Of a stretch of DNA of 64,000 nt, positions 7,677 through 33,687 are shown piece by piece; the stretch's first letter is position 1, and each line of letters opens with the position of its first letter. The notes beneath the pieces were generated by a model. It was not told where the DNA came from, made no database searches, and was given only the letters and a program-made list of their open reading frames with translations. The translations under genes were made by a program, and so were the position numbers. This stretch comes from Candidatus Peribacteria bacterium (GTDB lineage Bacteria; Patescibacteriota; Gracilibacteria; UBA1369; LOWO2-01-FULL-3): positions 10,428-74,427 of the forward strand of contig CALRGJ010000006.1 in assembly GCA_943357285.1 (NCBI GenBank), in the 5' to 3' direction.

Positions 7677-9935
7677 CTATTTACATGTAGGGGATTTTAC
7701 TGGTGCTTTGATGCGTACAAGCACGCTGGCATTTGGAGTAGCGATGTCAACGTAGTACGTTTTAAGCGTTGGAGGGGTTGTTGGATTGAAGGTAAGTGGA
7801 CCATCGTATGGATTCCAGACTTCGATCGGTGGCTGATTTTTTTCATCAACCAGGATCTTGATTCCTTCAGGACCTCCTTTAATCAATCCCACCATGGGGA
7901 GTTCATCACAACCTCCCTGTATGGAAGGAATCATGAAATAGCCCATAGGCATTAGTTCAACTGTAATGAAACTGTAGGTGTCGGTGCCAGGGATGAGGTG
8001 GGAAATTGACCACTGCCCACCTGGGGAACCGATCCACACAGAGAAGCCTTTCTCAGGGTCGCAGGTCCAGTTTTGAGTATCTACTAGACACTGCCCACCA
8101 ATGCACTTTCCCACCGGGCAGTTGTAGCAGGGATCCGCTTTGCACTTGTTGGCTGAGTTGCAGATCTGACCTTCCGGACATGAGGGACACAGTTGGCTGA
8201 GGCCATCGCATCCGGGATTTGTCATTGCACACTTGCCACATTCGCATCCGAGTTCTTCGCAGGACTGAACTTTGCATTTGTAGTGACATTTACCATCGAC
8301 AGCTGAGCAGAATTTGTCGTTGGGACATGTCCCGCAACTTCCGCCACACGAGTCCGAGCCGCACTCATTTTGGTAGCAGGCGGGCTTGCAGGTTTGTGTA
8401 TCCTTGCCGTCCGTGCTTGCATAAAAACTTCCAGCATCCTGCTCTCCTGTGCCGCCGCCGTACTGACCGCTGCCGGGATTTTCATCCTGAGAAACGGTGC
8501 TCTGACCTTGGCCGCACATGTAGCCCGACTGATTGCACTCGCACCCGCCCTGACACTTGTTTTTGTAACAGTAGCAGGGCGAAAGTGAAGTGATCATTCG
8601 CGCATACTCGCCGCGTGTCACGAATTCGTAGGGGTCGTATTGCAGAAGATCCTTGTCGATTCCGTTGTAGTAGGCGATGGTTTGCAGATACTTGTAGGAC
8701 CAGTCGCTGCTCTTGAGTTTCAGGAATTTGGCATACATGCCGGTCTTGAGTTCCGCCTTGTTGGCTTTGACCGCAGACTCGACTGCCATTTTCGCTGCTT
8801 CCGAGAAGTAAATCTCCTGTTCAGGGTTGAAGTGATCGTTGTCCTTGCTGATGACGCCGTACTTCACGCCGCAGACCACGAAGGGATAGAACCATTGAGA
8901 AGGATTTACATCCGTGAATGGTTCCAGAGTTCCTTCGCAGTCTTTGTCGAGACCGAAAAGAGCCAGTGCAATTTTCAGCGCTTCCGCTCGGGTGAGGTTA
9001 TCATCCTTGTGGAATTTACCGTCGCTTTTGCCGCTCACGGCACACTCGTGCCAGAGGTAGTTCACTGCCCAGGCAGTAGTGCTATCCGAAGAACTGAGAT
9101 CCTTGAAAGGAGTCTCGCTCTTGTTCTCGCAGTCCTCATTCATCGGGCATTGCATCTCGCAGACTTGAGGCGGATCAGGCTCCTGCTCTGGAGGGGTGGG
9201 TTCTTCTTGAGAATTATCCACTTCCGAGCAGTCAGCCTTTTCCACGTTTGTCAGCTTGAGCGCAGTGTAGATGCCATCCGTATAGATGTCGTTGCCGACG
9301 ATGCACTTAGGCACGCCGTTGCCGTCAGTGAATCCCATCTCGATGGGCAGGTGAGTCTCGCAGTCCTCGAACTGGAAGTGGAGGTGAGCACCTGAAACAT
9401 TTCCAGTCTTGCCGATTTCTCCGATCTTAAGACCCTGACACACCTCCATATCCTGAGCCACGCTTACGGACCCATCAAGCATGTGTGCGTAACGAGTGCA
9501 GATGTTGTTGCCATGATTGAGCAGCACGAAGTTGCCCCAGCCCTTGGATTTGCCAATCTCCTTCACGGAGCCGTCAGCAGAAGCCAACACTGAATCACCC
9601 ATGTCAGAATCTTCAGGCAAGCTGAAGTCCCAACTGAAAACCGCGTGCTCCAGAACAGTATGAGACGAATCGCAGAACGAGAGCGGATCTGTACCATACT
9701 TTTGATCGCACGCCTCGCAATGCATGCCCCAGGACTGAGTGATTTCCCAGTTGTAGCCCTGCGGCACCGGCACCTTGAAGTTGCTGCCGATGAGGTGGAG
9801 GCGATTGATCGAGTAGCCGACTTCAGTAGAAGTAGTATCGAATTGAATGGAGTTAATCTCCTTTTCCTTGTTGTTGGAATTGCACGCCGTGATCACCATG
9901 ATCATGACGAGCAGCTTGTAGATGTTGTGCAGCAT
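7677..9935 (-). CDS. lipoprotein with M23 peptidase domain, three SLH-like repeats and a cysteine-rich region
   Basis: Lipobox VITAC. M23 motifs (GSVKEIG...GNFVLLNHG...TRYAHM...GNVSGAHLHFQFE). SLH-like repeats (FKDLSSSD..TAWAVNYL...LTRAEALKIA; FTDVNPSQWFYPFV). A Cys-dense block (CGSDSCGGSCGTCPNDKFC...). Strong SD aaGGAGAAAgctcATG. The gene is much richer in G+C than its neighbours. Confidence 0.85.
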   Translation of the reverse strand: MLHNIYKLLVMIMVITACNSNNKEKEINSIQFDTTSTEVGYSINRLHLIGSNFKVPVPQGYNWEITQSWGMHCEACDQKYGTDPLSFCDSSHTVLEHAVFSWDFSLPEDSDMGDSVLASADGSVKEIGKSKGWGNFVLLNHGNNICTRYAHMLDGSVSVAQDMEVCQGLKIGEIGKTGNVSGAHLHFQFEDCETHLPIEMGFTDGNGVPKCIVGNDIYTDGIYTALKLTNVEKADCSEVDNSQEEPTPPEQEPDPPQVCEMQCPMNEDCENKSETPFKDLSSSDSTTAWAVNYLWHECAVSGKSDGKFHKDDNLTRAEALKIALALFGLDKDCEGTLEPFTDVNPSQWFYPFVVCGVKYGVISKDNDHFNPEQEIYFSEAAKMAVESAVKANKAELKTGMYAKFLKLKSSDWSYKYLQTIAYYNGIDKDLLQYDPYEFVTRGEYARMITSLSPCYCYKNKCQGGCECNQSGYMCGQGQSTVSQDENPGSGQYGGGTGEQDAGSFYASTDGKDTQTCKPACYQNECGSDSCGGSCGTCPNDKFCSAVDGKCHYKCKVQSCEELGCECGKCAMTNPGCDGLSQLCPSCPEGQICNSANKCKADPCYNCPVGKCIGGQCLVDTQNWTCDPEKGFSVWIGSPGGQWSISHLIPGTDTYSFITVELMPMGYFMIPSIQGGCDELPMVGLIKGGPEGIKILVDEKNQPPIEVWNPYDGPLTFNPTTPPTLKTYYVDIATPNASVLVRIKAPVKSPTCK

Positions 9936-10250
9936 GAGCTTTCTCCTTGTTGTAAACAGACTGAGATGTCAAAGAACATGCCGTGTATTTCACGGCTAAA
10001 GTTCACCTAGACTATTGATTCTTGGAACGAAGGTATCTCTCGATCCTCTTATTCACGTATGAACCACAATGCAACCTTCATGCTAATACAATAAAAAAAA
10101 TCTCAAAATAAAATATAAATAAAAAAGCCTAAAGAGCAGCAGCAAAACAAAAACTAAACTTAAAAAGTGTTGAACAGGTCCGTTCGACACAAAATATTTG
10201 CAAAAAAAAATAGCCCGTAGCTTAATGTAAACATTTATAACAATTCAAAT

Positions 10251-10949
10251 ATGAATAAGATTATTTTACTTTTATGTATATTCCTGACCCTTACAGCGTG
10301 TGAGCAAAAAACAATTATTTCAACACGAAATTCAGCAGCAGAAACAGACTACAAGAAAATTAGTGAGTCAATAACTGAAGCTGCCTTCAAAGCGACACCA
10401 TTGATGTCTCAAATTAAGAATCCAAAATTACTTTCAGATTCATACTGTGCAAAAACTACCGACAAAAATGAAGTTCAAAAAATTATAATAAATGAGAATA
10501 TCGCGACTAAATTTGAAAGCAGCCTTGATGCCCTCTATTCTGGAAAAGAAAATAAATTTCAAGTTGGAAGCGCTTATAAAGTTTGCAAGAAAAATAAAGA
10601 AATTTACGTTATTTTTCGATCAACTACGGATCCATCGTTTTTAATTGCTATATGGAAAGATGAAAATTCATTCGATTTCTTCCATGATGAGAATAAAGAA
10701 ATAAAATACTTTGGTAACGATGGTGGAGTGACATATTTATTGGCTGATGCTCAGAGCCCAAACAGTCTTGTTTATATGGCTGCACAAGATTCGCCGTCTT
10801 TTTCTTGGATGATAGACTCTTTGGATCCAAATACTTTAGAAGCTAGACAAATTGAAAATTGTAAAATAGCTTTTGAGTACAAATCAAAGCCATTCTCGGT
10901 AAATACCACTAAATCAACTCTCACCTGCGACAAGCAGTATAAGCCTTGA
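10251..10949 (+). CDS. hypothetical lipoprotein
   Basis: Signal peptide with lipobox LTLTAC. No recognisable domain. Confidence 0.6.
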   Translation: MNKIILLLCIFLTLTACEQKTIISTRNSAAETDYKKISESITEAAFKATPLMSQIKNPKLLSDSYCAKTTDKNEVQKIIINENIATKFESSLDALYSGKENKFQVGSAYKVCKKNKEIYVIFRSTTDPSFLIAIWKDENSFDFFHDENKEIKYFGNDGGVTYLLADAQSPNSLVYMAAQDSPSFSWMIDSLDPNTLEARQIENCKIAFEYKSKPFSVNTTKSTLTCDKQYKP

Positions 10950-10970: not shown

Positions 10971-11002
10971 AAAAAAGGCCCCACAATTCAGAGGGGCCTT
11001 TT
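10971..11002. terminator. bidirectional rho-independent terminator
   Basis: AAAAAA-GGCCCC-acaattcaga-GGGGCC-TTTT lies between convergent genes ending at 10949 and 11015. Confidence 0.65.
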
Positions 11003-11014
11003 AAATAATATCTA

Positions 11015-11602
11015 TTACAAGATCATATCAAATACCAAATTATCTACAGATTCAGCTATATCTTTTCCTCCATAAATTACCATGTCGTAATCTCCAAAAG
11101 CATTGCTTACATAATACATAATTTGTTTTACATCTCCTCCAACATCCGCACGTACGGATCTAGCTCCACTTATATCAGTTTTTCTAGCAGATACATCTTT
11201 CTCATCATATCCAGAAGCGGCGTTTACCTGCTTTTTTAGTAAATCAGCATCAGCAACTGTTCCATCAATACCACTCATATCAGCCAATTTATCAGACGGA
11301 TTTGTCGGCTTGAAATCTCTTGTTGCCAACCATATTTTTGGTGCTTTTGAATTATCAGCTGTTCCGAAAGATAATATTTTTCCGAAACCAACCTCTGCCT
11401 TCAAGTTTGTAACCACAGGTTCTCCCCATAATTTGTCATAACAAAACTGTAATGTGGAATCAGGCAATTTATATGCTACCTCTGAATTATCACATGCTAT
11501 TACTGCAGTTGCAGGATTAAATCTAACGGGAGTTGCAGTCTTTGTCCCTCCGCAAGCAGTCAGCATTACAGCTGCCATAGTTACTACAAGTATTTTTTTC
11601 AT
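11015..11602 (-). CDS. hypothetical lipoprotein, last gene of the sigma/A2M-like operon
   Basis: Lipobox MLTACGG. It lies 61 nt downstream of the giant gene on the same strand and is followed by the terminator at 10971-11002. Confidence 0.6.
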   Translation of the reverse strand: MKKILVVTMAAVMLTACGGTKTATPVRFNPATAVIACDNSEVAYKLPDSTLQFCYDKLWGEPVVTNLKAEVGFGKILSFGTADNSKAPKIWLATRDFKPTNPSDKLADMSGIDGTVADADLLKKQVNAASGYDEKDVSARKTDISGARSVRADVGGDVKQIMYYVSNAFGDYDMVIYGGKDIAESVDNLVFDMIL

Positions 11603-11663
11603 ATAATTTTGTTTATTAGTTAGCCTACAAATTCTACATAAGTCACCACTTCCTTACAAGCCC

Positions 11664-14600
11664 TTACTTCGCCGGATTAATTTTTATCATAGCCGGTTCA
11701 GATATATTTGCCACATTATGATCATAGAATGAAGTGATTTTTGCCGGATCAGCATAGAAAGTACCCGGATTTACCACCTTCGCGTAATACACTATCTTTG
11801 ATCTGGATGTTCCATGAATTACTTCTTTGAAATATGGGAACCAGCAGAAACTAATTTCCTGACCATTAATCATAAATGGATAGCTCAAATTTGTATCAAA
11901 AGTACTTCCATACATTGGCATATAGCTGATTGCAGGGGTTAGTCCGCTTGGTAGAATATCTGTAATTCTATAAAACGGTGAAGCTACGGAACCAGGACTT
12001 CCCAAATCAATCTCTACTCTTACTAAATCACCTTCATTAAATTCTGTGGTTTCTTTTCCATTCACTAAATATTTTCTCGTAATGTTGAGTCTGGAATCTT
12101 TCTTGAATTCCGCCGGTTCAACACCATCTCTGTAGTTCAATACGGCAGCAAGTGATCCCTCACTCACTGATACTGCCACCACGTCACCTGGAGAAGCCAA
12201 AATAGATTTAGACTCGCCGGTTTTTATGGAAACATTTTCGCTAGCTTGATTCAATTTATATTTAAATGAAACAGGTGAAGTCTTCGCATTTTTTATAGCA
12301 CCTGTAACATATCCAAGTTCATATAAATTGGTCAGATCTTCATTACCAAAACCACTCATGTTTACTCCTTTCCATAACGTCTCAGCAGTAAGTACATCAT
12401 TGATTGAGGAAGCTAGATCCGCACCCAAGGCAAGATTATGGATTCCCGTATTGCTAGTGTCTCCAACCAGCTTAGTTGATACTTCCTGAAGAATCTTTCT
12501 TGCATCCGGGTAGCTACCAATCTTCGCATAAGCTAGACCAAGGTATAGTTTTTGTTGAACAGATAATTCTTTAGCTTTAGCAATTTCTCTAATATCTAGT
12601 AGCACTGGTTCTTTCATGCTCGCCAAGCCTAAAAGTGAAAGAACTATGTCATCCAAATTAGATTTTGGATCTTTAAATACGTTATAGAAATATCTCTTCA
12701 GCTCATGTTTGCTATATCTATCTAAATTCACATCAAAAGCCACAACTAGTGCGGAAAGTTTCAAGTCATTGCTAGCATATGGTAGTAACGCCAATCCACC
12801 ATCTCTTTGGTAGCTCTCTAAAATATAATTACCTTCATCTTCATCGTGCTGTGCAAATTCTTTACCGAAATATTTTTTTAGAATATCTGCTGCCGCTTTG
12901 CTCGCCACTATTTGATCAAGACGTTTACCATCATTATAATAAAGAGAAAGTAAATTGTAATAATAATATGCTACGCCACTATCTAGGAATTGGATTTCAG
13001 TCTGCCCTTGTTTACCAAGGTTAAAGACAGTTTTATCATCAATATTTCTGATAGTCTTTACTACATCTTGAGTCAGACGTGATCCCTTCACCTCAAAAGG
13101 TTTTTTCATGGCGTCTTTCATTGATCTTGAATCAGCTTTTACTGTCACATCATGAGTTCCAAGAGGAAGAGCAGGTAGATTGAAATAGCTTCCAACAAAG
13201 GCCTTCCCATCAATAGCTTTTCCTTTTACTCCATCAACATCTGGATTGAATGTAACGGCATCACCATCTTTTAATTCTTTACCATAAGCTCTGAATTTAA
13301 TCATCGGATTATCTTTCTCTGAATATTCACGGTTCATCACCATGTCTACAAAGAAAGGTAGAGTCACTTTGATATTTTTTGTTTCAGTTCCGGCACTAAG
13401 ACTATCTATGTTAATTGCTGTAGCAAGAATTCTCCAAGAAGTGATATTGTCAGGAACTTTGAATTTTACTGATCCACGACCATCGGAACCTACGTCAGCG
13501 CTATAGAAAAGTGCAGTGTCCTTAAACTGCTGTCTTACATAATAGGCACCGTCACCTTTTTCATTATGAACAAAGAATCCATTGGCAAAATAGGTGTGAT
13601 AATCTTTAATTTCCATATTATAAACATCTACACTCTTCACTACTGGTCTCATTGAAGCAATCTTAATTAAGTGACCATCTTTATCAACCATACTGTCACC
13701 TAATTTTAAGTCTGCAACCTTTATCCATTGTCCATTAGCAAAGACTACATGTTCAGCTGTCACTTCAAGATTTTCATTGATAACAAAATATTCTGAAACA
13801 TTTTTGATAGTCTTTCCCACAACTTCTGCAGGAATTAATTTTGATGAAAATTCATTTTCTTTTGTGAGAATTTTGTCACCCTTTTTAATATCTTTAATTG
13901 CTTTCGTAGTGCCATCCGCCATAGAGATTTGAGTTTCACCGGTAAAACATCCGCCTTTCCCACCCTCACCAGATTTGGCATTTAGTGGATTATTATGCGT
14001 AAAGTAGCTCAATAAAATTCCTGAACCGGATGAGTAATATATTTGTTCCAAAGGATCGCTCATACCTGAATACACAGTTTTGTAGTAAGCCTCATCTACG
14101 ATGTTGAAATTTATTTTTGCAGGCATTGGGGCACCATCATTGTTGGTAACATAAACCGACAAACTAACTTCTTCACCAGGTTTATATTCTTCTTTGTTAC
14201 TATCAATTTTCAATTTCAAATTTTTCATCTCCCTCTTGTATTCGATATTTGTGCTGTTGGCCTGTTTATAAGTTTTTCCATCGAACCAAACTCCATCCAC
14301 AAATACATTCGGAACATTATCTTTTGAGAATTTGAAAGAATAATATGGAGAATCTTTAATCTCATATTTTTGTATACCATTACTTTCCTGCATGAATAAA
14401 AATCTACCTTTTGTTTCTTTTGGTAAATCAATAGTGTAGTTCTTTGAAATTACCGTATCCACAGTTTCTCCTATATCAAAACGGTAATTTGAGCCGTTCC
14501 AATATTCATTGGAATTTTTTGAAAGATTTTCTTTTAATACTTTCATGCTGTAATACTCATAATCATTTGAACCATCGCTCATATCTCCATAAACATAAGA

Positions 14601-17183
14601 TGTAGAGTAAGCTGGACCATTTTGATCATCAATAGTTTTTAGCGCAACAATATAATATTTATCTGAATCGATAGGGAACTGATAGCTTGCTTCTCCATTC
14701 TCATTTGTCACCCCGCTTATTGACGCAATTTTTTCTTTTTTCTGCGTGTAGTTATAGGTTTTTGCAGTCACTTTATTTATAAAATCATAATATTCACCGC
14801 TTTCTTCTTTGTCCCAACTTACTTGAATAATATTGCCGGTAAAATTTCTATTTTTAGCAACATCACCAAGATAGTCATCGTAACTTTTCTCGCTGGCATT
14901 GTTTATTCTTTTTAAATCCACCCACTTGGTTTTTACCGCTAAATTGGCAACTGTCGTGCCATCATCTTTTTTCACTGTCTCGGCTCTGCTCGCGATATTT
15001 AAGTGAGAATTAAATATTCTCACATCATTATTCGCTTGGATAGCACTTTCCTCGGATAATTTTGATTCAATATTATAATAGAAATAATTTATATCTGAGC
15101 AGTATTCTTCGTACTCATAAGTACAATCACTTTTTTTAGCTACCATGCTCGCCTTCGCTTCACCTTTAGTATTTGTAGTAAAAGTTTTTGATTTATTGGA
15201 AGAATCCAGCTGTCCATTATCCGTGATAGCTAAATTTGCAACCGGAGTCCCATCAAAAAATTCCGATTTAATATTGAAGTTTACCGTCTCTCCTACAAAC
15301 ACTGCATGTTTATCATTCTCCATCGTGAGATTATATGCAGGTTTAATATAATCTTCGACTTCAAAAGTAGTGGATGAAATCTGATCTTCACCTTGATAAA
15401 TTTGTATTGAGTAAGTAGATGGAGTGAAACTCTTTATCTCAAATTCACCCTCTATTGCCCCATCTTTATCAAATGTCAGTGGAATTTCTCTTACAAAAGT
15501 ATCCCAGTTATGCATTAGCTTCACCTTCAAATTATCAGGTTTGGCCACTCCGCTTTTTGGAGTAACGAATCCCCAGAAATGAACTTTATCCGTTGGTTTA
15601 TATTTTGAACGATCAGTAATAAGAGTCTTCCAGTAACTCATGCTCTTGTCTACCGAGAAGTAAACATAACCATCCAAAGGTGTAACTAAAGTCTTTCCAT
15701 CCGGAGCAGTTATTTTTGCGAAAGAAGCTACCATTTCACCATTTGTATCCGTAAAATCTTTCCAGGACTGAGGAGTTGTGAATTTTGCAATTCCATCACT
15801 TCCGGTTTTGATTACTTGATCAAGATCTTTGATTTGAATAGTAGCACCTTCCACCGGTTTTCCGGTTTGCAAATCATTCACCCAAATTACAGAATCAGTT
15901 ATAGAAGTCGTAATATAAGAAGATAAATCCGTTATTTGCACCAAAGTTTGAGCCTTATGGCCATTGTCATCTACCTGGAATAAGTAGTAGCCTTTATCTA
16001 AAGTTTTCTCTGGCAAGTATAGATATGAATTCCAGCGTGGGGTCTCTATAAGACCTTGCATGCTTCCCAAATCCTGCAATCCTGTAGTTGAGTGCAAATA
16101 CTTATTATTTGAATAATAAGCCCAGCGAGGAACATTTGCTGAATTCTTAAGCGCACTCAAATACTGGTTTTGATCGGTATACTTGTAGACTTGAATCGAA
16201 ACATCTTTCTTGCCCTGTTGCTCAAAACTATAAGAATAAACCTCCATTGCTATAGAACTTGTTGGAGAAATTTCATAGTAATCTTTGCTGAAATTGAAAT
16301 TTTGACCTGATGTAGATGGCCCTCCGTCTGTTTCAAATTTAAAAACAAAATCTTTTTCCAGTTTTTTGTCGGTATCTTTGATGCCAAATCCTTGCTTCAA
16401 TTTTACTGTATAAATAGTTTCAGAATTCAAAGGACTATTTGGTATGAAGCTCATAATTCTATCATGTTTTTCAAATCTTCCATCCACTTTAGGACTTATT
16501 TCAAAGAAATTTTGGACATTTTTGAAATCATAAGAAGCATGGCTGAAATTAATTTCAATTCCTGTATTTGTAGGCACGTAGCTGGATGCATTTGTTGGAA
16601 TACTTCCGTCGACTTTGAAATTATCTTGAATTTGATAAGCCCAACTTTGATCGCCATCATCAGTTTCAATATAGAAATTATATATTGTATTAGCCTCTAG
16701 TCCCTTTACCGCCTCCACTCTATATTTTCCTTTATCGGTTTTCTCAACATTGAGTTTAACTTCCGGCTGAACTTTTAGATTTTCCTTAATAATATCGACA
16801 CTGAGATCTTCGCTTGCAGTTAGAGTAAACCCACTATCGCTAGCCACTCCGCTCGCATCTTCAGTGATTGCCACCATCTCGAAATCCGCATATACAACCT
16901 GCATATTTGATCCAAACCAACCACGCAAACCACTGCTGAATACTAGAGCAACAATCAAAAGTCCTGAGATAACTGAAACTGATACTAATCTTTCCGGCAT
17001 CTTGAAAAGTGATTTGAATAAATCAACAAAAGTAGCTTTTTTATCTGTAACATCTTCCGCAATTTCGGCAGTGTGCTGTTTTTTCTTCATATCAACTTTC
17101 TTAGATATATATTTCCATAGATATTCTTTGCTCTTCTTGAGCTCTAGGTTATCCACCGACCTATTTGTGTATTTTTTATCCAT
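11664..17183 (-). CDS. membrane-anchored alpha-2-macroglobulin-like protein with embedded Hint domain (possible anti-sigma fusion)
   Basis: 1839 aa. The N-terminal ~65 aa are hydrophilic, then one TM (LVSVSVISGLLIVALVF), then long beta-rich MG-like repeats. An A2M_N_2-like segment (KPGEEVSLSVYV...NFNIVDEAYY) and the A2M signature (RQQFKDTALF...VPDNITSWRILA) follow. The TED-like region (YQRDGGLALLPY) has no CxEQ. The start lies 3 nt after the sigma-factor stop. Confidence 0.85.
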   Translation of the reverse strand: MDKKYTNRSVDNLELKKSKEYLWKYISKKVDMKKKQHTAEIAEDVTDKKATFVDLFKSLFKMPERLVSVSVISGLLIVALVFSSGLRGWFGSNMQVVYADFEMVAITEDASGVASDSGFTLTASEDLSVDIIKENLKVQPEVKLNVEKTDKGKYRVEAVKGLEANTIYNFYIETDDGDQSWAYQIQDNFKVDGSIPTNASSYVPTNTGIEINFSHASYDFKNVQNFFEISPKVDGRFEKHDRIMSFIPNSPLNSETIYTVKLKQGFGIKDTDKKLEKDFVFKFETDGGPSTSGQNFNFSKDYYEISPTSSIAMEVYSYSFEQQGKKDVSIQVYKYTDQNQYLSALKNSANVPRWAYYSNNKYLHSTTGLQDLGSMQGLIETPRWNSYLYLPEKTLDKGYYLFQVDDNGHKAQTLVQITDLSSYITTSITDSVIWVNDLQTGKPVEGATIQIKDLDQVIKTGSDGIAKFTTPQSWKDFTDTNGEMVASFAKITAPDGKTLVTPLDGYVYFSVDKSMSYWKTLITDRSKYKPTDKVHFWGFVTPKSGVAKPDNLKVKLMHNWDTFVREIPLTFDKDGAIEGEFEIKSFTPSTYSIQIYQGEDQISSTTFEVEDYIKPAYNLTMENDKHAVFVGETVNFNIKSEFFDGTPVANLAITDNGQLDSSNKSKTFTTNTKGEAKASMVAKKSDCTYEYEEYCSDINYFYYNIESKLSEESAIQANNDVRIFNSHLNIASRAETVKKDDGTTVANLAVKTKWVDLKRINNASEKSYDDYLGDVAKNRNFTGNIIQVSWDKEESGEYYDFINKVTAKTYNYTQKKEKIASISGVTNENGEASYQFPIDSDKYYIVALKTIDDQNGPAYSTSYVYGDMSDGSNDYEYYSMKVLKENLSKNSNEYWNGSNYRFDIGETVDTVISKNYTIDLPKETKGRFLFMQESNGIQKYEIKDSPYYSFKFSKDNVPNVFVDGVWFDGKTYKQANSTNIEYKREMKNLKLKIDSNKEEYKPGEEVSLSVYVTNNDGAPMPAKINFNIVDEAYYKTVYSGMSDPLEQIYYSSGSGILLSYFTHNNPLNAKSGEGGKGGCFTGETQISMADGTTKAIKDIKKGDKILTKENEFSSKLIPAEVVGKTIKNVSEYFVINENLEVTAEHVVFANGQWIKVADLKLGDSMVDKDGHLIKIASMRPVVKSVDVYNMEIKDYHTYFANGFFVHNEKGDGAYYVRQQFKDTALFYSADVGSDGRGSVKFKVPDNITSWRILATAINIDSLSAGTETKNIKVTLPFFVDMVMNREYSEKDNPMIKFRAYGKELKDGDAVTFNPDVDGVKGKAIDGKAFVGSYFNLPALPLGTHDVTVKADSRSMKDAMKKPFEVKGSRLTQDVVKTIRNIDDKTVFNLGKQGQTEIQFLDSGVAYYYYNLLSLYYNDGKRLDQIVASKAAADILKKYFGKEFAQHDEDEGNYILESYQRDGGLALLPYASNDLKLSALVVAFDVNLDRYSKHELKRYFYNVFKDPKSNLDDIVLSLLGLASMKEPVLLDIREIAKAKELSVQQKLYLGLAYAKIGSYPDARKILQEVSTKLVGDTSNTGIHNLALGADLASSINDVLTAETLWKGVNMSGFGNEDLTNLYELGYVTGAIKNAKTSPVSFKYKLNQASENVSIKTGESKSILASPGDVVAVSVSEGSLAAVLNYRDGVEPAEFKKDSRLNITRKYLVNGKETTEFNEGDLVRVEIDLGSPGSVASPFYRITDILPSGLTPAISYMPMYGSTFDTNLSYPFMINGQEISFCWFPYFKEVIHGTSRSKIVYYAKVVNPGTFYADPAKITSFYDHNVANISEPAMIKINPAK
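13563..13949 (-). other. Hint / mini-intein-like (BIL-like) domain inside the A2M-like CDS
   Basis: Residues 1079-1207 read CFTGETQISMADG...LEVTAEHVV...DYHTYFANGFFVHN. This gives Cys1, the TxxH block B and the terminal His-Asn. It is 129 aa with no endonuclease insert. The +1 residue is Glu (HN|EKGDG). Confidence 0.8.
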
Positions 17184-17186
17184 TGT

Positions 17187-17762
17187 TTAGGCTAGGTTAG
17201 GTGATAATAAGTCTCTCAAATTTGTCATTGCCCTATGCATCACGGCTTTGACAGCGCTTTCTGAACTTTCTGTGGTCTCAGCAATTTCTTTCTGTGACAT
17301 ACCTGTGAAGTAGTACAGACTTATTACATTTTGATGCTCTGGTTTGAGAGTGGCCAAGGCATCGCTCAATTTAGTTAGTTCTTCATCTCCGAATAATGTC
17401 TTATCTAATTCCTTTAACTCTTCCTTCACATCCACTGCTAATCCTTCATGTCCTTCCGGTACGTCTTCCAAAGCAGCAGAGCTTGGGTTTCGACGCTGAT
17501 TTTTTAGCGCGTTAATAGCGATTCTATAGAGCCATACTTTGATTGATATGCCAGTCCATTTGAATTTGTGTAAGCTTTCGAAAGCTTTGATGAAGGTGTC
17601 AGCCGTTAAGTCATATGCGACCTCTGAATTGAGAGTGCGTTTGACCAGATATTTGAGAATCATCTCGTAGTAGAATTCATAGATTTTCTCAAAAGCTTGA
17701 GGGTTGTCCTTGAATTCAACTAATATCTGTTGCTGGACCTCGGAAGGAAGATCCTGGGACAT
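17187..17762 (-). CDS. ECF-type RNA polymerase sigma-70 family factor
   Basis: Region 2 (DLTADTFIKAFESLHKF...KVWLYRIAINALKNQRR) and region 4 (ISLYYFTGMSQKEIAETTESSESAVKAVMHRAMTNLR). Confidence 0.9.
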   Translation of the reverse strand: MSQDLPSEVQQQILVEFKDNPQAFEKIYEFYYEMILKYLVKRTLNSEVAYDLTADTFIKAFESLHKFKWTGISIKVWLYRIAINALKNQRRNPSSAALEDVPEGHEGLAVDVKEELKELDKTLFGDEELTKLSDALATLKPEHQNVISLYYFTGMSQKEIAETTESSESAVKAVMHRAMTNLRDLLSPNLA

Positions 17763-17794: not shown

Positions 17795-17832
17795 GTAGGG
17801 ATAATTTCAGTGCCCACTAAAAGCATCCCTAC
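17795..17832. promoter_or_regulatory. 8-bp inverted repeat in the divergent promoter region of the sigma gene
   Basis: GTAGGGAT (17795-17802) and ATCCCTAC (17825-17832) are separated by 22 nt. Confidence 0.25.
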
Positions 17833-17936
17833 ACTAGCAATAACACAGGGTTTTGGAAAGGTTGCGGTTTTTACTATTTATTCTCAATAAAGAGTACAAT
17901 AGAGATTCTACAAAGAATATTTTTAACCCCAGGGAT

Positions 17937-18341: not shown

Positions 18342-20429
18342 ATGGATAAAATAAATATGAAAAATAAAAACAAAAAACAGTATTTGGCCATCGTTTTGGC
18401 CATCGGTATAATATTCACCAGCACTCAAAATGCCGACATTGGTAAGTACATTAGACCTTCGGTTTTTGTGGATTTCAGCATTGAGCAAAGTCGCAAAATT
18501 TCTATGGTAAGCAATATAGAAGAAGACCTGCTTACAGCTAGAAATGTTCTTAGAGGTTGTGATGTTGTGGTTGTGGGAGGAGGTGCCTCCGGTACGGCAG
18601 CGGCTATACAATCTGGGAGAATGGGTGTGAAGACCTGTATTATTGAACAAACAGATTGGCTGGGGGATATGCTAACAGCTTCAGGAGTCTCAGCTATTGA
18701 TGGTGACCCCGCAAAAACCTCAGGTATTTTTCGCGAATTTTTAGATAGAGTAATTAGTTATTATAAAAAAGAAGGTAAATCCGCTCAAACTCATCTTTGT
18801 CATGTAAGTCCATTTTGTTATGAGCCTTCTGTAGGAGCCGCAATTTTGAATGAGATGGTTTCAGAAGTGCCTACTTTGAAAGTTTATTACAACTCTTATG
18901 TTACCAAAGTGTACCGTGAAGGTAATTTAATTAGAGGTGTAAAATTTAAGAATAATAAGGGTGGTGACTACGTTGTCCCTGCACATGTAGTAATTGATGC
19001 TACTCAGTTTGGTGATCTGATGTATATGGCAAATATTCCTTATGACATCGGTGTAGATGAGAATTCCACCGAGTTTCATGCGAATATTACTTCTCAATGT
19101 ATTCAGCCACTCACTTTCGTCGCAGTTTTGGAATTCAAAGGTAAAGATGTAACTATTCCCGAACCTGAAAATTATAATATCAATAATTATAAATGTACTA
19201 TTCCAAATAAGCTTTGTCCCGGATCAAGCAGTCAGTTTGATATGGAGCGTCTTTTGGAATATGGACATCTCCCAAATGATAAAATGATGATCAATGTTCC
19301 AAGCCATTCATATGGTAATGATTATGATGCCTCAAGAGAAGCTCTGGATAATTTTAGTCGCGCCGATATTTTCCAAAAGGCTAAAGATTTTTCTTTGGGA
19401 TATATCTATTTTATACAGAAGGAACTTGGTTTTAATTATTATGGATTGAGCAATGAATTTGGAACTGATGATAAACTCGCAAAACTTCCATATGTGAGAG
19501 AAAGCAGACGTCTTGTGGGACAATATCGTCTCCAAGAAGAAGATGTACTTCCTGATAGTGATGGGCGTTCTAAAATTTTCTCAGATAGCATAGCAATTGG
19601 TGATTATCCAATTGATTTACACTTCTGTGAAAGAGGAAAAGGAGATTTTTATTACCCAATTCCTCCGTATCAAATTCCATATGGAGTGACAGTGCCTAAG
19701 GAAATTGATGGATTTCTTGTTGCTGGTCAAAATATCTCAGTGAGTCACATCGTAAATGGTACTACAAGAATGCAGCCCGTAGTAATGCAGTTGGGACAAG
19801 CTGTCGGAATGGCCTCTGCTCTTTCCGTAATTAATGATGTTCAGCCTCGCAATGTTCCAATTTTAGAACTACAAGAAAAATTAATTAATGCGGGATCAAA
19901 GGTTCTATATTTTAGCGATGTGAATACTGACAGTTTTTCTTATCCATACGTTACCAAACTTGCTTTGAAAAACATTCTTCGCGGTTACAACGATTTTTCT
20001 TTCAAGCCAAATGTTGCAATCAATAATTATGATATGACCATGATGTTCGCTAAGGCTTCAGCTCTTACCGAATATCAACAATTTAACGAGAATACAACTT
20101 TTGAATATGAAGACGCCCTAGCCTTATTAAAAGAAAAAAACATTTTTGATAAATCGTTAGATTTATCAAAAGTAGAAAAACCTGTTACCAGAGAGGAATT
20201 GGCGCATGTAATTTCTAGATTTGTAGATCCAACCGGTAAACACACAGCTTCTAGCAAAAACTTTAGCGACGTTACTAAAAAGAGTCGATTTCAAGCTGAT
20301 ATATCAAAGCTCGCCAGCCTGGACATAGTAAGTTCTAAACATGATAAATTCAGACCAGGAGATGTGGCAACTCGTGCTGAAGCGGTGACCATGCTTGGCA
20401 AAGCCATGGAGTATTCATCATCACTTTAG
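18342..20429 (+). CDS. exported FAD-dependent oxidoreductase with C-terminal SLH repeats
   Basis: Signal peptide. Dinucleotide-binding motif VVVVGGGASGTAAAIQSGRMG. C-terminal SLH-like repeats (FSDVNTDSFSYPYVTKLALKNILRGY..F.P; FSDVTKKSRFQADISKLASLDIV...FRPGDVATRAEAVTMLGKAM). Confidence 0.8.
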   Translation: MDKINMKNKNKKQYLAIVLAIGIIFTSTQNADIGKYIRPSVFVDFSIEQSRKISMVSNIEEDLLTARNVLRGCDVVVVGGGASGTAAAIQSGRMGVKTCIIEQTDWLGDMLTASGVSAIDGDPAKTSGIFREFLDRVISYYKKEGKSAQTHLCHVSPFCYEPSVGAAILNEMVSEVPTLKVYYNSYVTKVYREGNLIRGVKFKNNKGGDYVVPAHVVIDATQFGDLMYMANIPYDIGVDENSTEFHANITSQCIQPLTFVAVLEFKGKDVTIPEPENYNINNYKCTIPNKLCPGSSSQFDMERLLEYGHLPNDKMMINVPSHSYGNDYDASREALDNFSRADIFQKAKDFSLGYIYFIQKELGFNYYGLSNEFGTDDKLAKLPYVRESRRLVGQYRLQEEDVLPDSDGRSKIFSDSIAIGDYPIDLHFCERGKGDFYYPIPPYQIPYGVTVPKEIDGFLVAGQNISVSHIVNGTTRMQPVVMQLGQAVGMASALSVINDVQPRNVPILELQEKLINAGSKVLYFSDVNTDSFSYPYVTKLALKNILRGYNDFSFKPNVAINNYDMTMMFAKASALTEYQQFNENTTFEYEDALALLKEKNIFDKSLDLSKVEKPVTREELAHVISRFVDPTGKHTASSKNFSDVTKKSRFQADISKLASLDIVSSKHDKFRPGDVATRAEAVTMLGKAMEYSSSL

Positions 20430-32394: not shown

Positions 32395-33687
32395 TTATTT
32401 TTTTCTGATCAAAATATAATAAACTCCTGATCCCATCAATAAAATTAAAATAAAAATCTTTAAAACCAAGATGTTGTTTTTTTCCTCAGTGATGATTCTA
32501 TCATCCTCAACAATCTTACTCTCATCATTTCCCATAACTTTAAATACGGCATCGGCATAAACTTCTTCTCCCATTACTTCGCTAGTAACTCGAATTCTAT
32601 ATATTCCAGCTTTAGTACCTGGTTGTAGATCAATTGGAAGTCTCACTATTGTTCCTTCTTTTGGATCGGCATTGGCAAACCCTTCACCATATAAGGCACC
32701 ATCAATGTTGAAAATTTTATATTCAATTTTGATTGGATATTTCACATTTTCATCATATCGGTAGAAATTTATATCCAGATTGAATGGCTTTTGATTTGGA
32801 ACAGGTTGGTAGCCTGGAGTGAGAGACAAAGATAGTGGATTTTCTTTTGTAATCTTTTTATCCTGATGCCTTACGATGAAAGGAATTTTTTTGGTAGAAA
32901 TTAATTCATCTGTTCCTTGTGTTTTTATAATTACATTGAACACATGCTCTCCAACCTCAATAGGTTTTGGAGGAGACCAAAACCAATCTCCATTTTGATC
33001 TGCAAAAATTACATCTTTTTGAACACGACTAAACATGGTTATTTCCAGTTTTGCAAATGGAACCGTTTTTCCGGTAAAAATAATTGGTTTATTTGCATAT
33101 AGATTGATTTCCTCATTTTCCGATACCTTGTCAATATTGAGGGATACTATATTCTTCAAAACTGTATCCGAATATCCATCATCTGTTACTTCAGTTCTTA
33201 CAATTTTAGGTAAAAAAGGATCAAGATAGTGTTCCACTATATCGGGCTCAACATATGGTTCGAGAGTTTTATCATCAAATAAATACTTCTTGTCATTATC
33301 AATGACAATTTTTGTAGTTTCTTTAACTGGAGCTACTACGACAATTTTAACCAAATCTTCCTTTATCACTGGTACAACAGGCAAAATCTCGGTATTGGTC
33401 AATTCAGTATCCGGTGTCTCAATATTATCTGTGGCTTTATCAGGTGTAGGAGTCTTCTTAACAGTTGGTTTACTATAAGTTGCTGGAAAGGATCCTCCAC
33501 CGCCATTTGAGTTTGTCACCTCGGGCTCATCCTCGATTGCTACAATAGTAGGGGGGACCGTGGCTGAAAGATTAACAACTTCTGCTAAAAAGCTGTCACC
33601 CCTTATAGCACCATCATTCACTACTAAATATATTGACCCGTAAAGAGTCATAGCCGCGATTAGCAATATTGGAAGTTTTTTTTGCAT
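32395..33687 (-). CDS. secreted beta-rich protein with Pro/Thr linker and C-terminal TM anchor
   Basis: N-terminal signal/anchor, a GGGGS and PT-rich linker, Ig-like beta segments, and a C-terminal LVLKIFILILLMGSGVYYILIRKK. It is divergent from the surface cluster across a 136-bp shared region. Confidence 0.6.
   Translation of the reverse strand: MQKKLPILLIAAMTLYGSIYLVVNDGAIRGDSFLAEVVNLSATVPPTIVAIEDEPEVTNSNGGGGSFPATYSKPTVKKTPTPDKATDNIETPDTELTNTEILPVVPVIKEDLVKIVVVAPVKETTKIVIDNDKKYLFDDKTLEPYVEPDIVEHYLDPFLPKIVRTEVTDDGYSDTVLKNIVSLNIDKVSENEEINLYANKPIIFTGKTVPFAKLEITMFSRVQKDVIFADQNGDWFWSPPKPIEVGEHVFNVIIKTQGTDELISTKKIPFIVRHQDKKITKENPLSLSLTPGYQPVPNQKPFNLDINFYRYDENVKYPIKIEYKIFNIDGALYGEGFANADPKEGTIVRLPIDLQPGTKAGIYRIRVTSEVMGEEVYADAVFKVMGNDESKIVEDDRIITEEKNNILVLKIFILILLMGSGVYYILIRKK

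Follow-up and report, generated by a model that had tools for sequence, protein, structure and literature searches.

In a 64,000-nucleotide (nt) stretch of contig CALRGJ010000006.1 from a Candidatus Peribacteria bacterium (hereafter the window), three consecutive genes on the minus strand encode an extracytoplasmic function (ECF) sigma factor, a giant single-pass membrane protein whose ectodomain has an alpha-2-macroglobulin (A2M) fold, and a lipoprotein. Here, we describe this module and propose that the giant protein is the anti-sigma factor of its neighbour. The sigma gene (17187–17762; 191 amino acids (aa)) ends with a TAA stop codon at 17189–17187, and a 3-nt spacer, ACA (17184–17186), separates this codon from the ATG at 17183 that opens the giant gene (11664–17183; 1839 aa). 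The lipoprotein gene (11015–11602; 195 aa; lipobox MKKILVVTMAAVMLTAC, followed by GG) begins after a gap of 61 nt. Beyond it, at 10973–11002, lies a hairpin terminator for both strands that is common to the convergent gene 10251–10949 (+). The hairpin has a perfect 10-bp stem (AAAAGGCCCC/GGGGCCTTTT), an A run on one flank and a T run on the opposite flank. Owing to its 10-nt loop, it escaped our consensus terminator scan. An earlier interpretation of this locus (hereafter the sequence-only reading) had described the same gene layout and a bidirectional terminator, and both descriptions proved accurate. We could see no Shine-Dalgarno sequence by eye 5′ of the sigma, giant or lipoprotein gene; since this applies to all three, its absence before the giant gene is no evidence for coupling.

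The 191-aa protein is a true ECF (group 4) sigma factor in which only regions 2 and 4 are present. It matched the Pfam models Sigma70_r2, r4 and r4_2, and scored 89.4 bits against TIGR02937, for which the cut-off is 42.9. Its homologues are 57–98% identical among the 120 matches listed of 140 with E ≤ 1e-10. The source is a bacterium of the candidate phyla radiation (CPR), in which the family of the giant protein is widespread. Close homologues are named Candidatus Peregrinibacteria, with one cluster member named Candidatus Gracilibacteria.

The giant protein begins with a Lys-rich, hydrophilic cytoplasmic tail (aa 1–61; 17001–17183), which is our proposed sigma-binding segment. A transmembrane (TM) helix identified by hydropathy scan follows (approximately aa 62–85; 16929–17000), and the ectodomain of ~1750 residues starts with Ig-like domains detected by Pfam. 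Three approaches identify this ectodomain as A2M-like, as the sequence-only reading had suggested. First, Pfam matches above the cut-offs comprise Big_5, MG2, A2M_BRD, PT-HINT and A2M, with bMG3 and bMG10 below the cut-offs. Second, a search of PDB with a profile of 104 homologues ranked E. coli ECAM/YfhM (E = 4e-34) and Salmonella A2M (E = 7e-29) highest, and TEP1, CD109, human A2M and C3/C4/C5 appeared further down. Third, an AlphaFold2 model of aa 861–1839 (mean pLDDT 85.3) retrieved ECAM as the top Foldseek match (7e-35), followed by the whole A2M/complement family. Given this agreement, the fold is not in doubt. We conclude that the giant protein is by fold a member of the A2M superfamily, with a chain of MG domains, a bait-region domain, MG7, a helical TED and a C-terminal MG domain. 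The A2M_BRD match (MG5-6 and bait-region domain; PF07703, E = 8.6e-10) covers aa 903–1034 (14082–14477), and the A2M (MG7) domain (PF00207) covers aa 1223–1296 (13296–13517). Before the latter stands VRQQFKDT, which corresponds to VRKYFPETW of human A2M, a sequence that starts at residue 731, three residues past the bait region.

The TED-like domain (aa 1404–1631; 12291–12974) is helical in the AlphaFold2 model (model residues 544–771) and lacks the thioester. Its GKRLDQ sequence (12912–12929) occupies the position of GCGEQ; none of the 104 homologues has a Cys there, the single C.EQ string (in homologue P0092) being of uncertain position, and Arg1421 of GKRLDQ is at least 90% conserved across the family. 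Since the CxEQ thioester is absent, the giant protein is no classical covalent protease trap. Among bacterial A2M proteins of this multi-domain fold, the MagD type of Pseudomonas likewise has no thioester. As a side observation, the AlphaFold2 model is closer to protease-activated ECAM (4rtd and 4ziq; TMq 0.44) and induced human A2M (~0.42) than to the native forms 5a42 and 4u48 (TMq 0.30). This may be a quirk of modelling, or the family may rest in an induced-like shape.

The bacterial A2M proteins ECAM/YfhM and Salmonella SaA2M, which share this multi-domain fold and are the best matches in both sequence and structure, are likewise outward-facing proteins tethered to the cytoplasmic membrane. 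In contrast to the ECAM/YfhM type, the giant protein has a TM helix and a 61-aa tail, no lipid anchor and no CxEQ; it carries a Hint domain in the bait loop and is coupled to an ECF sigma factor. The ECAM/YfhM type also has PBP1C as its partner gene; we detected no PBP-type (Transglycosylase/Transpeptidase) Pfam match in the four flanking genes scanned, which encode an M23 peptidase with S-layer homology (SLH) domains, an FAD oxidoreductase with SLH domains, a DUF4012 protein and the product of 10251–10949.

A Hint domain in the bait-equivalent loop

A PT-HINT match (PF07591; 52.9 bits, cut-off 27.7) spans aa 1079–1207 of the giant protein (CFTGETQ...FFVHN; 13563–13949). Its nearest solved relatives in the PDB profile search are BIL2 of Tetrahymena (6TMM/6Y75, 8e-18) and CthBIL of Clostridium thermocellum (2LWY, 3.6e-16). 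The sequence that follows the domain, YYVRQQFKDTALF...VPDNITSWRI, aligns with residues 729–799 of human A2M, ETVRKYFPETWIW...VPDTITEWKA, directly after the human bait region, which we take to be residues 690–728 (UniProt P01023). Hence, the Hint domain occupies the loop equivalent to the bait region. Disordered linkers flank it in the AlphaFold2 model (aa 1058–1078 and 1209–1213). Across the 104 homologues, the loop takes two forms: 62 have GGKGG, a Hint domain (CF...VHN) and (D/E)KGG..R.DF.D, and the remaining 42 have GGAEKGG-GGDGG.R.DF.D without interruption.

Cys1079, Thr1142, His1145, His1206 and Asn1207 are invariant in all 62 Hint-bearing homologues, and Gly is found at −1 and at −2 in 61 of them. 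The domain thus has the Cys1, block B TxxH and terminal His-Asn that characterize class 1 inteins. The +1 residue, Glu1208 in the window, varies across the family (Asp 37, Glu 13, Gln 6, Asn 2, Ser 2, Lys 1) and is acidic in 50 of 62 proteins, with neither Cys nor Thr found at this position in any of the 62. Lacking a +1 nucleophile, the domain is not a class 1 intein. We detected no homing endonuclease in its 129 aa. On these sequence features, it is a member of the BIL/PT-HINT group, and it is located after the TM helix, on the predicted extracytoplasmic side. CthBIL (2LWY), BIL2 (6Y75) and the pre-toxin HINT domains share its Cys1, TxxH and terminal His-Asn and likewise have no +1 nucleophile, but here the host has an A2M fold, the site is the bait loop, and the adjoining segments are neither toxin nor ubiquitin-like cargo. 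According to Amitai et al., BIL/HINT domains reportedly occur in secreted or surface proteins. We considered and rejected a polymorphic toxin system of the pre-toxin HINT kind, given that MG7, TED and MG domains, and no toxin, lie C-terminal to the Hint domain. A PADLOC scan gave no defence-system match.

The sequence-only reading had guessed that the ectodomain might undergo autoprocessing. The BIL-type Hint domain in the bait loop, which that reading had overlooked along with the absence of the thioester, now provides a physical basis for the guess. BIL domains without a +1 nucleophile yield mainly cleaved products (PMC7664689), although, to judge from the title of Aranko 2013 as cited in that paper, such domains can also ligate. 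In BIL2, which is controlled by Zn, an isopeptide bond links the upstream domain to a lysine (PMC8616854). A lysine is found at +2 (Lys1209; 13560–13562) in 60 of the 62 Hint-bearing proteins and in none of the 42 Hint-less proteins at that column. By analogy with BIL2, Lys1209 could act as the attacking nucleophile and so form an isopeptide; alternatively, it could be needed for cyclization of the Asn.

An insertion of this kind might instead be a neutral or selfish intein-like element that splices out and restores a continuous chain, with no role in function or signalling. Its position in a flexible loop would suit such an element, as would the closed loop of the Hint-less relatives, the reported capacity of BIL domains to ligate and a patchy distribution: in a quick neighbour-joining tree, the Hint domain appears in one clade of 46 and in scattered small groups. 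This tree gives no support for monophyly of the Hint-bearing members, and hence we make no claim of a single gain. Three features argue against a neutral element, namely the prevalence of Asp/Glu and absence of Cys/Thr at +1 together with the predominance of cleaved BIL products, the missing homing endonuclease, and the association of the +2 Lys with the Hint domain. In addition, no segment is as well conserved as the Hint domain within the Peregrinibacteria-type clade (0.66, against 0.54 for the ectodomain), although the host proteins of this clade are only 35–80% identical. Such conservation in divergent hosts is better explained by selection acting on the host than by drift, and we regard a neutral insert as unlikely.

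In complement C3/C4/C5, a furin-type protease cuts the MG6 loop, the two chains stay associated, and the anaphylatoxin domain lies there. The loop is the same in the giant protein, but the cut would be made by a built-in Hint domain. If the Hint domain does cleave, it would be a built-in substitute for the protease that matures C3/C4.

Sigma factor linkage, cytoplasmic tail and promoter

Related loci were obtained from a single-protein search of genome contigs, which returned one close relative, and from an alignment-based metagenome search, which returned 80 loci. The adjacency of the sigma and giant genes noted in the sequence-only reading is conserved, whichever of the two genes is taken as the starting point. 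Thus, for two sigma homologues picked regardless of their neighbours, a giant protein (1809 and 1874 aa) starts 2–4 nt downstream; both giant proteins have A2M_BRD and PT-HINT matches, and for one of the two the listed matches include A2M. A further 28 or more sigma/giant pairs were recognized by the equal size of their source contigs. The tight spacing is maintained, at 2–4 nt in close relatives, but the exact 3 nt of the window is not, and in distant relatives the two genes overlap or sit at most 27 nt apart.

We scored tail length, Hint domain and upstream sigma gene at each of the 80 metagenome loci. Among the 64 related loci that have a complete start of the giant gene and enough upstream DNA, a same-strand ECF sigma gene lies directly upstream at 24 of 31 loci with a tail of at least 50 aa, but at only 1 of 33 short-tail loci (Fisher p = 2.5e-10). 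The lone short-tail locus with a sigma gene (L042) has a 38-aa tail that is still anti-sigma-like, and five of the seven long-tail exceptions have a different N-terminal module. At one locus (L062), the tail is a zf-HC2 domain (35 bits, cut-off 22.2), which is a canonical anti-sigma domain, and the gene overlaps the sigma gene by 4 nt. We also noticed that, in five Hint-bearing relatives without a sigma neighbour (L014, L031, L032, L065 and L075), a cytoplasmic module of ~45 aa replaces the anti-sigma-like tail. This module has the motif L..YI......G.S..EI...L...GW....I..AL and no significant Pfam match, and its presence indicates that the N-terminus of the giant family is modular.

Within the tail of the window protein, a core at aa 9–30 (SVDNLELKKSKEYLWKYISKKV; 17094–17159) has a conservation of 0.65, compared with 0.19 for the linker (aa 31–50) and 0.54 for the ectodomain. 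The core consensus in the clade of the window is R.VD.....KSK.YLWKYI..K, and AlphaFold2 places helices at aa 16–41 and 49–60. No other part of the tail is conserved as strongly as aa 9–30, and this refutes initiation at the internal Met32, which according to the sequence-only reading would have left no cytoplasmic domain. That reading had also likened the position and topology of the protein to those of an anti-sigma factor, and we found the same, with ~61 hydrophilic residues, one TM helix (~62–85) and a large ectodomain. The giant gene is directly downstream of the sigma gene, co-oriented and tightly spaced, and encodes a protein of N-in single-pass topology. On this evidence, the sigma/giant pair resembles an ECF sigma/anti-sigma module, with a tail that belongs to no known anti-sigma domain family. 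As a separate observation, more distant sigma-linked tails have no Pfam match but share, ~20–40 residues ahead of the TM helix, the motif P...(D)FK..L...(I/L)...R, in many cases with CN(D/N)PE...LL in front of it. This motif may define an undescribed type of anti-sigma tail.

The sequence-only reading had named another anti-sigma candidate, the product of a divergent Pro-rich open reading frame (ORF; 17853/17937–18272 (+)), which has one TM helix and adjoins the sigma gene. We found no homologue of it at any of 81 related loci, including loci whose giant protein is 68–83% identical to that of the window; the upstream neighbours of the sigma gene vary between relatives, and the ORF has no family match. 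We consider it extremely improbable that this protein is the real anti-sigma factor. No other conserved neighbour able to serve as one was found among the related loci.

Upstream of the sigma gene, we identified an ECF-type promoter, CGCAACCTTT-N11-TGTTATTG (17838–17866, minus strand), in a motif common to the window and eight fetched loci. It comprises a −35-like GCAAC (17865–17861) and a −10-like GTTA (17844–17841) with a 16-nt spacer. The general form, G(C/T/A)AAC-N16-GTTA(T/C)TG, is found 5′ of the sigma gene in the window and in L002, L004, L005, L006, L043, L082, L083 and L084; since the upstream sequences of L082 and L083 are identical, these eight loci represent seven distinct sequences. 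The spacer is 16 nt at every sigma locus that carries the motif, and the long form of the motif has one match in the 64-kb window, namely 17838–17866, against 0.12 expected. The motif has the usual layout of an ECF promoter, with an AAC-type −35 element at fixed spacing, and is predicted to be autoregulatory. RsiW-SigW and RseA-RpoE have the same gene order, tight coupling, N-in single-pass topology and autoregulatory 'AAC'-type promoter.

We also observed that an imperfect 10-bp hairpin, CCCTGTGTTATTGCTAGTGTAGGG (17827–17850, minus strand), overlaps the −10 element. GTTATTG.TAGTG is found again in L002, L006 and L082–L083; the versions in L043 and L084 differ from it by one or two changes, and L004 and L005 lack it. 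The hairpin could represent either a regulatory structure or a piece of the promoter. The sole other match to GYAAC-N16-GTTA in the window (33459–33483, minus strand) was rejected as a regulon promoter, being inside an ORF (32395–33687, minus strand) and at chance level.

A proposed autoregulated envelope module

Taken together, gene order, tail, Hint domain and promoter incline us to the view that this is an autoregulated envelope module of a Peregrinibacteria/Gracilibacteria-class CPR bacterium in which the giant protein acts as anti-sigma factor, the Hint domain cuts the bait-equivalent loop, and loss of the ectodomain frees the sigma factor. The ECF sigma factor would be made together with the giant protein, whose 61-residue helical tail would hold it at the membrane-anchored protein. 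Autocatalytic cutting of the loop by the Hint domain would proceed through an N-S acyl shift at Gly1078-Cys1079 together with cyclization of Asn1207, and the mature ectodomain would then consist of two associated pieces. Damage to the ectodomain, or its loss, would lead to degradation of the membrane stub by intramembrane proteolysis and thereby free the sigma factor, which would transcribe its own operon from G(C/T)AAC-N16-GTTA. Since this operon is the only evident target of the sigma factor in the window, loss of the ectodomain would lead to replacement of the consumed protein.

For an A2M-like protein at the surface of a CPR cell, such loss would most plausibly be due to foreign proteases, by analogy with Vampirococcus, a member of the CPR in which large membrane surface proteins with A2M domains have been proposed to defend against host proteases (PMC8080830). 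Neither coupling to a sigma factor nor a Hint domain is reported for those proteins. Living attached to other cells, CPR bacteria encounter foreign proteases.

In the literature that we searched, no paper connects A2M to ECF sigma factors, to anti-sigma factors or to Hint/intein domains. Within this scope, the statement in the sequence-only reading that A2M proteins have not been described as sigma-coupled is correct, and the combination of ECF sigma/anti-sigma signalling, a macroglobulin/complement fold and Hint autoprocessing is absent. If the tail binds the sigma factor, an A2M-fold protein would be a transmembrane sensor and not simply a trap, and its own consumption could drive its resupply. 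The parts of the module are small enough for testing in E. coli.

Several of our results weigh against this proposal. The tail of the window protein gave no Pfam match at E ≤ 1 and has no visible HxxxCxxC/His-Cys motif; in this it differs from class I zf-HC2 anti-sigma factors, as it does in having an ectodomain of ~1750 aa with an A2M fold. Alignment of the Peregrinibacteria-type tail with the distant sigma-linked tails by hhalign paired KeYLWkYIqK with k..Lr..ll.kr at a probability of 2.4%, which is not significant. A profile of the tail retrieved only this family and fragments from 1.84 billion representatives; a motif confined to the family is no evidence for a portable sigma-binding module. 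We found no site-2 protease candidate (an HExxH multi-TM ORF) in the 64-kb window, a result that is uninformative for the whole genome. With respect to the Hint domain, all four combinations of Hint and sigma linkage occur among the loci, including nine with a sigma gene and no Hint domain and 17 with a Hint domain and no sigma gene, and therefore the domain is not essential for signalling. Its cut would lie ~1000 residues from the membrane and leave a large stub, and thus is not itself a site-1 cleavage. Moreover, the bait-equivalent loop is short and Gly-rich, making it a poor protease bait, and the ability of BIL domains to ligate means that the two parts of the chain may be joined again.

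The results for the tail would fit another arrangement, in which the giant gene is only a regulatory target of the sigma factor within the sigma operon, the tail serves simply as membrane anchor and topology signal, and the sigma factor is controlled elsewhere or not at all. The lack of a Pfam or anti-sigma match, the non-significant hhalign result and the confinement of the tail motif to the family are all as this arrangement would have it. However, relatives without a sigma gene manage with a plain short signal anchor or a lipobox, and hence a conserved 60-aa tail is unnecessary for anchoring. Tail length also predicts the sigma neighbour, L062 has a true zf-HC2 tail, the tail core is more constrained than the ectodomain, and no conserved neighbour offers itself as an alternative anti-sigma factor. 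We therefore judge a plain anchor to be rather improbable.

A further possibility is that the Hint domain is itself the trigger, such that conditional self-cleavage in response to thiols, redox state, metal ions or pH sheds the C-terminal half (MG7-CUB-TED-MG8) and starts release of the sigma factor. The catalytic set is intact, the related BIL2 responds to Zn (PMC8616854), conditional inteins offer a parallel, and autoproteolytic ectodomain modules act in RsgI anti-sigma factors (PMC10556640). Against this stand the nine sigma-linked loci without a Hint domain, the 17 Hint-bearing loci without a sigma gene, and the distance of the cut from the membrane, which would leave a stub that is no obvious site-2 substrate. 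We consider a triggering role quite doubtful. RsgI-SigI offers a close parallel in one respect, the presence of a self-cleaving module in an anti-sigma ectodomain (PMC10556640, PMC10328401). There, the SEAL domain cuts RsgI, whose fragments remain associated until they are separated by a signal (PMC10556640). The SEAL domain is unrelated to Hint; it cleaves through strain and not through a thioester, and does so next to the membrane, leaving a short stub, whereas the putative cut in the giant protein is far out in the ectodomain. SEAL and RsgI_N Pfam matches were not found in the giant protein. If the Hint domain cleaves, it would add another kind of self-cleaving module to anti-sigma ectodomains.

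We also entertain, as a long shot, the idea that this family, having lost its reactive thioester, regains one through the Hint domain, with consumption of the protein then reported to the ECF sigma factor. The N-S acyl shift at Gly1078-Cys1079 would then create a backbone thioester in the bait loop. Attack by Lys1209 would give an isopeptide-branched 'spliced' chain, as in BIL2; attack by a target amine, on an attacking protease or the cell wall, would give covalent capture or anchoring. Were this true, the A2M fold would have a second, independent route to a warhead, and a Hint-based sensor would be wired to transcription.

Downstream lipoprotein and neighbouring genes

The lipoprotein gene lies 61 nt after the giant gene, as the sequence-only reading had it, but is confined to this lineage. 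Its 195-aa product belongs to no family and has only nine homologous clusters, all at least 54% identical; among the fetched loci, it is present in L001 and L003 only. The 61-nt gap contains neither a terminator-like hairpin nor a copy of the promoter motif, and the lipoprotein gene is therefore probably co-transcribed with the sigma and giant genes. At two other loci, a second copy of the promoter motif (6955–6979 in L004 and 2367–2391 in L037) lies past a hairpin 3′ of the giant gene and precedes a lipoprotein gene without evident similarity to that of the window. Thus, a downstream lipoprotein may be a recurrent member of the regulon even though its sequence is not conserved.

The convergent gene 10251–10949 (+) encodes a putative lipoprotein with no Pfam match. 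Envelope proteins with SLH domains adjoin the module. On one side, 7677–9935 (minus strand) encodes a lipoprotein with Peptidase_M23 and SLH domains and a Cys-rich C-terminal part; on the other, 18342–20429 (+) encodes an FAD-dependent oxidoreductase with SLH domains. Homologues with M23 and SLH domains are found near the module in L001, L002, L006, L043 and L082. Positions 8001–10000 of the window, inside the M23/SLH gene, have a G+C content of 52%, compared with ~36% elsewhere; we found no tandem repeat there, and the opposite strand contains long spurious ORFs.

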